This document shows, piece by piece, positions 6,001 to 9,000 of a stretch of 24,564 bases of DNA (positions within the stretch are counted from its first letter, which is position 1; each line of letters starts with the position of its first letter). Origin of the DNA: a virus (taxonomy: Duplodnaviria > Heunggongvirae > Uroviricota > Caudoviricetes); IMG/VR virus record IMGVR_UViG_2740892233_000024; one strand, written 5' to 3'. Made by a program: the position numbers.

Positions 6001-9000
6001 CGCATACTTTCGTCGCGATAGATGATCGGGGATTCAGTAACATTCACGCCGGAAGTGAACTCAAAGAGGGTTCTGGCGTCGTTCTCGTACTGTTTTCCCC
6101 AGGCCAGAGCCTTAGCGTTAACTTCCGGAGCCACACCGGTGCAAACCTCAGCCAGCAGGGTGTGGAAGTAGGACATTTTCANNNNNNNNNNTCGGGGTTT
6201 TGCTATTACGTTGTGAATTTCTGAAGCTGTGATGACGCCGAGCCGTAATTTGTGCCACGCATCATCTCCCTGTTCGACAGCTCTCACGTCGATCCCAGTA
6301 CGCTGCAGGATAATGTCCGGTGTCATGCTGCCACCTTCTGTTCAGTGGCTTTTTGTTTCAGGAATCCAAGAGCTTTTACTGCTTCGGCCTGTGTCAGTTC
6401 TGACGATGCACGAATGTCGCGGCGAAATATCTGGGAACAGAGCGGCAATAAGTCGTCATCCCATGTTTTATCCAGGGCGATCAGCAGAGTGTTAATTTCC
6501 TGCATGGTTTCATCGTTAACCGGAGTGATGTCGCGTTCCGGCTGACGTTCTGCAGTGTATGCGGTATTTTCGACAATGCGCTCGGCTTCATCCTTGTCAT
6601 AGATACCAGCAAATCCGAAGGCGAGACGGGCACACTGAATCATGGCTTTATGACGTAACATCCGTTTGGGATGCGACTGCCACGGCCCCGTGATTTCTCT
6701 GCCTTCGCGGGTTTTGAATGGTTCGCGGCGGCATTCATCCATCCACTCGGTAACGCAGATCGGATGATTACGGTCCTTGCGGTAAATCCGGCATGTGCAG
6801 GATTCATTGTCCTGCTCAAAGTCCATGCCATCAAACTGCTGGTTTTCGTTGATGATGCGGGACCAGCCATCAACGCCCACCACCGGAACGATGCCGTTCT
6901 GCTTATCAGGGAAGGCGTAAATTTCTTTCGTCCACGGATTAAGGCCGTACTGGTTGGCGACGATCAACAATGCGATGAACTGCGCATCGCTGGCATCACC
7001 TTTAAATGCCGTCTGGCGAAGAGTGGTGATCAGTTCCTGTGGGTCGACAGAATCCATGCCGACACGTTCAGCCAGCTTCCCTGCCAGCGTTGCGAGTGCT
7101 GTACTCATCCGTTTTATACCTCTGAATCAATATCAACCTGGTGGTGAGCAATGGTTTCAACCATGTACCGGATGTGTTCTGCCATGCGTTCCTGAAACTC
7201 AACATCGTCATCAAACGCACGGGTAATGGCTTTTTTGCTGGCCCCGTGGCGTTGCAAATGATCGATGCATAGCGATTCAAACAGGTGCTGGGGCAGGCCT
7301 TTTTCCATGTCGTCTGCCAGTTCTGCCTCTTTCTCTTCACGGGCGATCTGCTGGTAGTGACGCGCCCAGCTCTGAGCCTCAAGACGATCCTGAATGTAAT
7401 AAGCGTTCATGGCTGAACTCCTGAAAATGGCTGTGAAAATATCGCCCGCGAAATGCCAGGCTGATTAGGAAAACAGGAAAGGGGGGTAGTGAATGCTTTT
7501 GCTTGATCTCAGTTTCTGTATTAATATCCATTTTTTATAAGCGTCGACGGCCTCACGAAACATCTTTTCATCGCCAATAAAAGTGGCGATAGTGAATTTA
7601 GTCTGGATAGCCATAATTGTTTGATCCATTTTTCGGGACTCCTGGCTGATTAAGTATGTCGATAAGGCGTTTCCATCCGTCACGTAATTTACGGGTAATT
7701 CGTTCAAGTAAAGATTCGGAAGGGCAGCCAGCAACAGGCCACCCTGCAATGGCATATTGCATGGTGTGCTCCTTATTTATACATAACGAAAAACGCCTCG
7801 AGTGAAGCGTAATTGGTATGCGGTAACGCCGCGCTCAGGCGGCTTTGATAGTCATATCATCTGGATCAAATATTCCTGATGTATCGATATCGGTAATTCT
7901 TATTCCTTCGCTACCATCCATTGGAGGCCATCCTTCCTGACCATTTCCATCATTCCAGTCGAACTCACACACAACACCATATGCATTTAAGTCGCTTGAA
8001 ATTGCTATAAGCAGAGCATGTTGCGCCAGCATGATTAATACAGCATTTAATACAGAGCCGTGTTTATTGAGTCGGTATTCAGAGTCTGACCAGAAATTAT
8101 TAATCTGGTGAAGTTTTTCCTCTGTCATTAAGTCATGGTCGATTTCAATTTCTATTGATGTTTTCCAGTCGTAATCAATGATGTATTTTTTGATGTTTGA
8201 CATCTGTTCATATCCTCACAGAAAAAAATCGCCCTCACATTAGAGGGCAAAGAAGATTTCCAATAATCAGAACAAGTCGGCTCCTGTTTAGTTACGAGCG
8301 ACATTGCTCCGTGTATTCACTCGTTGGAATGAATACACAGTGCTTACTCGTACTAATAAAATACCCAATTTTCTGTTTCTTGGTTGTGTCCAAAGTTATA
8401 TTCAATATCTGGTGTTGATGTATCAATATTTTTCATCCCATCAACAAGAGTTGATACAACAGCCAAATCTTGTTTTATTCTCATTAAATGGTATTTCTTC
8501 CGGCGCAATAAACTTTCAATAGCAAGTTTCTTCGTTGGGAATGCAAAAGATCTTTCTGCATTTTTTGCTACTTTCTTAATTGCATATCTATTTCTCCTTT
8601 GTTTCCATTCCTGTAACCACTGATTTGGTGCTGGTTTAAAATTAACAATCCAATGCGCAGGAACCAACCATGCATAATGCTCTGTCTGATGAAAAGCTAT
8701 ATATTGAAGTGCGAATATTTTTATCCCATCTTCTTCAACTGTCGCCTGGAATCTCCAGAAAACAGGCATTCCATCATGTTCAGTTTCTGATTCAGGAAAA
8801 GGTACGCTCCATGATTTTGTCATATCTCACCTCAAATAAGTGGTTTGCTGTCTAATTTCATTTTCTGGCGACCAACACAAGTCACACCCATTTCACTGCG
8901 TGGCTTGCGGTAGTAAAGATTGTGCCTGTCTTTTAACCACATCAGGCTCGGTGGTTCTCGTGTACCCCTACAGCGAGAAAAATAGTAAAATCCTCTTACC

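Follow-up and report, generated by a model that had tools for sequence, protein, structure and literature searches.

The kil-gam segment and its features

The stretch of DNA considered here, called the window throughout, is the complete 24,564-nucleotide (nt) IMG/VR record IMGVR_UViG_2740892233_000024 from a virus of the Caudoviricetes, and the subject is the part of it that encodes Kil, a cell-division inhibitor peptide, and Gam, an inhibitor of the host nuclease RecBCD. The window was aligned with phage lambda (NC_001416) and phage 933W, its minus strand was read directly, and its open reading frames (ORFs) were listed. The listing gives the series cIII-kil-gam-bet entirely on the minus strand, which is the early-left gene order of lambda. 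This segment very probably belongs to the leftward early operon of an Escherichia coli prophage of the lambda-like (Stx-phage-like) kind, and it carries two common natural alleles, one at the kil stop codon and one in a T-run between kil and gam. The features concerned are given below, where GamS denotes the 98-amino-acid form of Gam and GamL the 138-amino-acid form of lambda.

7762..7598, minus strand: cIII, an ORF that is annotated in the 100%-identical stretch of the E. coli E2865 prophage (NZ_AP018808); its 3' end overlaps the kil start
7629..7465, minus strand: kil, 54-amino-acid allele, cell-division inhibitor peptide, from its translation and its match to Pfam Lambda_Kil
7488-7486, minus strand: TAC (Tyr48) codon in place of the lambda kil stop TAA, from the alignment; the variant base is 7486
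7467-7465, minus strand: TAA ending the extended Kil, being the next in-frame stop; at 18 codons upstream of the GamS start, it is also the nearest stop that precedes GamS in the gam frame
54 nt between 7465 and 7410, minus strand: kil-gam spacer, from the ORF coordinates
7461-7444, minus strand: weak terminator-like hairpin, GCCUGGC-loop-GCGGGC and then GAUAUUUU, between the kil stop and the ribosome-binding site of gam
7531..7379, minus strand: 50-amino-acid remnant ORF from an ATG matching the lambda GamL start, ending out of frame inside gam
7427-7424, minus strand: TTTT run (TTT in lambda), from the alignment; the one-base difference that splits the frame of the upstream ATG from the gam frame
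7422-7418, minus strand: Shine-Dalgarno sequence AGGAG, 7 nt before the GamS ATG, where the annotation of phage vB_EcoS_P27 (KU238067) likewise has a ribosome-binding site
7410..7114, minus strand: gam, 98 amino acids (GamS length), host RecBCD nuclease inhibitor, from Pfam PF06064 and lambda identity
7108..6323, minus strand: bet, an ORF directly downstream of gam, also in the E2865 annotation

Furthermore, Gam holds its expected position in the Red recombination module, in which gam is followed by bet and then by exo. The Rfam model Lambda_thermo, which describes the thermoregulator of the cIII messenger RNA, matches positions 7717-7775 of the minus strand over its full length with a score of 88.5 bits, and this match confirms the lambda early-left context.

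A shifted stop codon and a longer Kil

The codon that follows His47 of kil is TAC in the window and TAA in both lambda and 933W. Translation of 7629..7465 gives a protein of 54 amino acids that ends in the tail YPPFLFS, as compared with 47 amino acids for lambda Kil. An earlier sequence-only reading of the window had proposed precisely this change and this extension, and both are seen in the alignment and the translation. A single TAA-to-TAC change moves the kil stop seven codons downstream, and adds a short, probably unstructured tail.

Apart from its tail, the protein is a close relative of lambda Kil. Residues 1-47 are identical at 45 of 47 positions, the substitutions being L5I and L38Q, and residues 2-32 align with positions 1-31 of the 31-position Pfam Lambda_Kil model (PF06301) at 68.1 bits, against a cut-off of 27.6. 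What the window Kil does not share is the lambda-type length, with a stop directly after His47. Length is no strict criterion of the family, since RefSeq names the 54-amino-acid form Kil, and active Kil peptides of lesser length are known, for example in phage HK629 (PMC11762379). According to Naha, Cameron and Margolin (PMC11762379), the active part of lambda Kil is a helix-turn-helix formed by residues 4-38, and in nearly all homologues the motif RSK or RSSK stands close to the C-terminus; the window Kil retains this core, the G19-D20 turn, and RSSK at residues 41-44. An AlphaFold2 model of the 54-amino-acid protein, built on an alignment of Kil variants, places helices at residues 3-18 and 21-43. 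Its pLDDT scores, averaged in ten-residue blocks, lie at 87-94 up to residue 40 and drop to 65 and 59 in the part between residue 41 and the C-terminus. The helix-turn-helix core is therefore not touched by the extension, which lies in a C-terminal region that is dispensable by experiment in lambda Kil: without its last 11 residues the lambda protein still inhibits division, although about 10-fold less efficiently (PMC11762379).

As judged from the conserved core, the window Kil would act by ZipA-dependent inhibition of FtsZ-ring assembly, and the 54-amino-acid form most likely still inhibits formation of the ring. The most economical reading would thus be a near-neutral shift of the stop codon that leaves Kil active.

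The allele is well represented in other genomes. A 58-mer spanning the kil stop was compared with complete E. coli genomes, counting the records whose best match is exact among 5,426 genomes; 187 records have the TAC form exactly and 1117 the TAA form. Five records of the phage collection contain the TAC 58-mer exactly, among them those of the Stx-converting phages vB_EcoS_P27, Stx2a_F723 and Lys19259Vzw. Moreover, at least 1000 contigs carry the identical 54-amino-acid Kil according to an exact-sequence look-up, in which it is named "host cell division inhibitory peptide Kil". The extended protein occurs on several Kil backgrounds, with I5 or L5, I37 or M37, and Q38 or L38, and its tail itself takes several forms, namely YPPFLFS, YPPSLFS and YPPSLFF, in addition to a 50-amino-acid Kil that ends in YPP.

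This frequency, and the retention of the tail on several backgrounds, raise the possibility that the seven residues alter Kil function, by weakening, abolishing or retargeting its inhibitory action, and that TAC is a selected variant. The C-terminus is known to modulate potency, as about 10-fold more Z rings stay intact when the last 11 residues are deleted (PMC11762379). Yet the tail varies in sequence and is predicted with low confidence, and the DNA that encodes it is spacer sequence, which is conserved whether it is translated or not. Conservation of the tail thus needs no selection at the protein level, and a functional role for the tail appears rather unlikely beside a near-neutral shift of the stop. 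Haeusser et al. 2014 (PMC3961180) contains nothing on an altered Kil C-terminus.

The kil-gam spacer and the length of Gam

Downstream of kil, the window carries four T residues at 7427-7424 where lambda carries three, and the nearby base at 7429 has changed from T to C, so that GCTATTTCAGG in lambda corresponds to GCCATTTTCAGG in the window. As a consequence of the extra base, the ATG at 7531 lies 121 nt from the GamS ATG at 7410, as opposed to 120 nt in lambda, and it is out of frame with gam. The long form of Gam calls for an in-frame ATG 120 nt upstream with no intervening stop; the window has a spacing of 121 nt, and a TAA in the gam frame 18 codons upstream of the GamS start. The sequence-only reading was right on these points: the extra T separates the upstream ATG from the gam frame, and only GamS is encodable, as the 98-amino-acid ORF is intact and the upstream ATG opens an ORF of merely 50 amino acids. 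The range that it had named for a read pile-up, 7415..7425, lies near the run but slightly off it, the run itself being 7424-7427.

Where that reading spoke of a stop-codon loss and of a frameshifted long-form Gam, its framing does not hold. A 65-mer across the T-run and the gam start is exact in its TTTT form in 1684 complete E. coli genome records and in its lambda form in 751. The TTTT run is shared by phage 933W, whose depositors annotated gam with 297 nt (98 amino acids). The supposedly frameshifted state of the T-run is therefore the commoner one, and the in-frame long gam ORF of lambda is the minority state, so that the label "frameshifted" reflects the reference chosen more than the window itself.

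The one-base difference also changes how kil and gam stand to each other. In the TTTT allele they share a reading frame, and are kept apart only by a single TAA (7467-7465) and 18 sense codons; in lambda they are in different frames. The 50-amino-acid remnant ORF has no match in Pfam or NCBIfam, and it is most likely not a gene and not translated. In phage 06-3462 (OP797663; locus L125, 470-622) the same remnant is annotated as a second "host-nuclease inhibitor protein", which is an annotation-transfer error from lambda as the reference.

By comparison, GamS itself is unimpaired. The 98-amino-acid ORF (7410..7114) is intact, and is identical to residues 41-138 of lambda Gam at 96 of 98 positions, with the conservative substitutions L22I and S61A. 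It matches Pfam PF06064 with 216.8 bits against a cut-off of 25, residues 1-98 of the protein aligning with positions 1-98 of the 98-position model, while a search of NCBIfam returned no match for either Gam or Kil. The Pfam model covers only residues 41-138 of lambda Gam. Similarly, all Gam chains in the PDB (2UUZ, 2UV1 and 5MBV) are 98-99 amino acids long, and the window protein matches each of the three over its full length with E-values of about 1e-61. It is the GamS dimer that has been solved on RecBCD, with its N-terminal helix entering the single-stranded DNA channel of RecB (PMC5218532). In the window, the ATG at 7410, with AGGAG 7 nt before it, would be the start of gam translation and give the 98-amino-acid Gam, and from its 98% identity to lambda GamS, the form in the solved complex (PMC5218532), this protein is expected to bind and inhibit RecBCD.

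The frequency of the two alleles bears directly on whether the differences from lambda are real; as these are point differences from a reference, chance is no issue. The window, a draft or masked sequence, contains nine runs of 10 N (3000-3009, 3388-3397, 5834-5843, 6182-6191, 17330-17339, 22746-22755, 23127-23136, 23297-23306 and 23620-23629), the T-run difference sits in a homopolymer, and one duplicated segment of the window ends at an N-run. A draft-assembly artefact could in principle account for both the extra T and the TAC codon, and the sequence-only reading had itself suggested a homopolymer sequencing error. However, the identical states recur in the 1684 (TTTT) and 187 (TAC) complete E. 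coli genome records and on the contigs that share the exact Kil; TTTT is found in 933W and both states are found in P27; the E2865 prophage is 100% identical over 701 bp; and more than 1.2 kb separates the kil-gam differences from the closest N-run. An error of sequencing or assembly is in consequence almost inconceivable as the source of these alleles.

The duplicated segment merits a separate remark. Positions 1723-2999 and 4832-6016 are 95-98% identical to one another, the former repeating the 3' end of exo together with the small genes downstream of it; this second copy adjoins the integrase end and stops exactly at the N-run 3000-3009. Contigs from two related prophages may have been joined here in scaffolding, in which case the duplication is not real.

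Alternatively, the frameshift and the stop loss might be the first lesions of a decaying prophage in which gam and kil are becoming pseudogenes. The prophage is mosaic, and its exo looks truncated at first sight, as would befit such a history. The apparent truncation is caused by gaps, however: relative to E2865, the N-runs 5834-5843 and 6182-6191 stand for approximately 102 and 22 nt of exo, and because these two runs replace exo sequence, the short 180-amino-acid exo ORF (5784..6326) results from the gaps and does not represent a truncated gene. The 98-amino-acid Gam is moreover intact and 98% identical to that of lambda, the same alleles are present in deposited Stx-converting phages, including 933W, P27 and Stx2a_F723, and sporadic lesions could not account for the frequency of the alleles or for the number of backgrounds that carry them. 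Decay of the segment is thus very improbable, and its two differences from lambda are better regarded as natural alleles.

To place the long form of Gam in a wider context, gam loci were collected from IMG/VR viral contigs by the conserved ribosome-binding site and start of gam, with an exact match required around the gam start. Since AGGAG was part of the search pattern, it is present in every sampled locus by construction. The loci with enough flanking sequence numbered 110, and comprise the IMG/VR loci among the matches listed, the window, and three reference records; all of the survey counts that follow refer to this set. The lambda-type in-frame extension of 40 codons is present in only 18 of the 110 loci, and all of the others lack it and have a stop in the gam frame at least 14 codons upstream, mostly at 14-46 codons. 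Where kil lies upstream, the GamL-type ATG is separated from the GamS ATG by 121 nt in 25 loci, by 120 nt in 18, and by 119 nt in one. Lambda kil is unrecognizable upstream of gam in 67 loci, about one third of which keep the TTTT-type spacer while the rest have a diverged one. In all but a few of these 67 loci there is a gam-frame stop 14-46 codons upstream, and in none of them is the lambda-type extension found.

The same pattern is apparent in complete genomes. In many E. coli genomes, homology to the window starts only at the last kil codons (query position 309), and in many E. coli prophages kil is replaced by an unrelated gene for a 68-amino-acid division inhibitor, the GamL start region being absent and Gam identical. 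In GN4554 (locus L126, 1301-1507), for example, an unrelated 68-amino-acid "phage encoded cell division inhibitor protein" stands in the place of kil, the junction falls at the shared CAC TAA (at about 7489-7492 in the window), and Gam is the identical 98-amino-acid protein, WP_000995439.1. The CAC TAA junction is a neat boundary of modules that carry different division inhibitors.

Taken together, the locus survey, the 98-position Pfam model and the solved chains of 98-99 amino acids identify the 98-amino-acid GamS as the conserved unit, with the 138-amino-acid ORF of lambda as a minority configuration. The kil-gam spacer would be effectively non-coding, with a length that varies by single bases among phages, and the spacer length of lambda would simply happen to fuse an ORF overlapping the kil end to gam. 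The chances are roughly even that the 138-amino-acid GamL is a young N-terminal extension of the lambda lineage, produced by a one-base deletion in the kil-gam spacer that fused this ORF to gam. If that is true, the "full-length" Gam of the textbooks is an evolutionary novelty or an annotation artefact, and not the ancestral gene.

Several points weigh against this account of the two alleles and of GamS. GamL and GamS have been described as two isoforms of lambda Gam, both of which are active when expressed from plasmids (PMC5218532; PMC11610958), and GamL may be a real product in lambda itself. Within the lambda-type loci, synonymous and non-synonymous variants stand at 5:4 in the extension, as read in the GamL frame, versus 18:22 in the GamS body; these counts are small, and coding constraint on GamL may operate within the lambda lineage. 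In addition, the proportions among the sampled gam loci are rough, the E. coli counts are of records and not of alleles, and the activity of the 54-amino-acid Kil allele is inferred from its conserved sequence.

It is also conceivable that phages of the TTTT type still make a long Gam, either by a +1 slip on CAU-UUU-C or by read-through of the single TAA, but this is far less likely. The codon after the putative slip site, read in the original frame, is CAG, a common one, no stimulatory element can be seen, and many prophages have no upstream ORF at all, and both programmed frameshifting and read-through were set aside on these grounds.

The hairpin at 7461-7444 was considered as a further possible functional element of the spacer. 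It looks like a terminator, and can be called a putative one, and it lies in the region of the tL2 terminator cluster of lambda. A scan for the terminator consensus found two sites against 1.0 expected, and the fold energy of the hairpin is ordinary (z -0.6). The stem is largely preserved among the loci and the loop is variable, including at loci with another gene in front of gam, and some natural variants disrupt the stem. A structured RNA or terminator was set aside as a reading of the hairpin in view of the ordinary fold energy and the stem-breaking variants.

The surrounding prophage and comparison with known systems

Any one complete E. coli genome or phage record covers at most about 54% of the window, and the prophage is for this reason a distinct mosaic. 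Among its other genes are a LexA-like S24 repressor (10957-11694, minus strand), a DnaB-type replicative helicase (13390-14766, plus strand) where lambda has P, and a cargo gene for an LpxR lipid A deacylase (19166-20125, minus strand).

The biological importance of the two alleles is small, as both are already annotated in RefSeq and in Stx-phage genomes. What they do illustrate is a reference bias: the 138-amino-acid gam annotation of lambda is atypical, so that normal prophages will be labelled frameshifted time and again when they are compared with it. The comparative data also lend modest support to the 98-amino-acid GamS as the conserved functional unit of Gam.

With respect to known systems, the window resembles lambda GamS in its length of 98 amino acids, its position upstream of bet, its AGGAG ribosome-binding site and its ATG; it differs in an upstream spacer that is one base longer, and in the lack of a lambda-style ORF of 138 amino acids. 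Compared with lambda GamL (NP_040618), the window keeps the ATG and approximately the first 32 codons of the extension in recognizable form, but out of frame with gam. As in lambda, where Kil has 47 amino acids, the kil start overlaps the cIII end, and the window adds the seven-residue tail.

The closest counterparts carry both alleles. In vB_EcoS_P27, Kil is annotated with 165 nt (54 amino acids) and Gam with 297 nt (98 amino acids). The E2865 prophage is 100% identical to positions 7100-7800 of the window, and the NCBI pipeline annotates it with the same two proteins, Kil as WP_000372926.1 (165 nt) and Gam as WP_000995439.1 (297 nt). Both alleles are thus already deposited, named and frequent, and represent nothing new, although outside the cIII-kil-gam segment the window is a different mosaic from both P27 and E2865.

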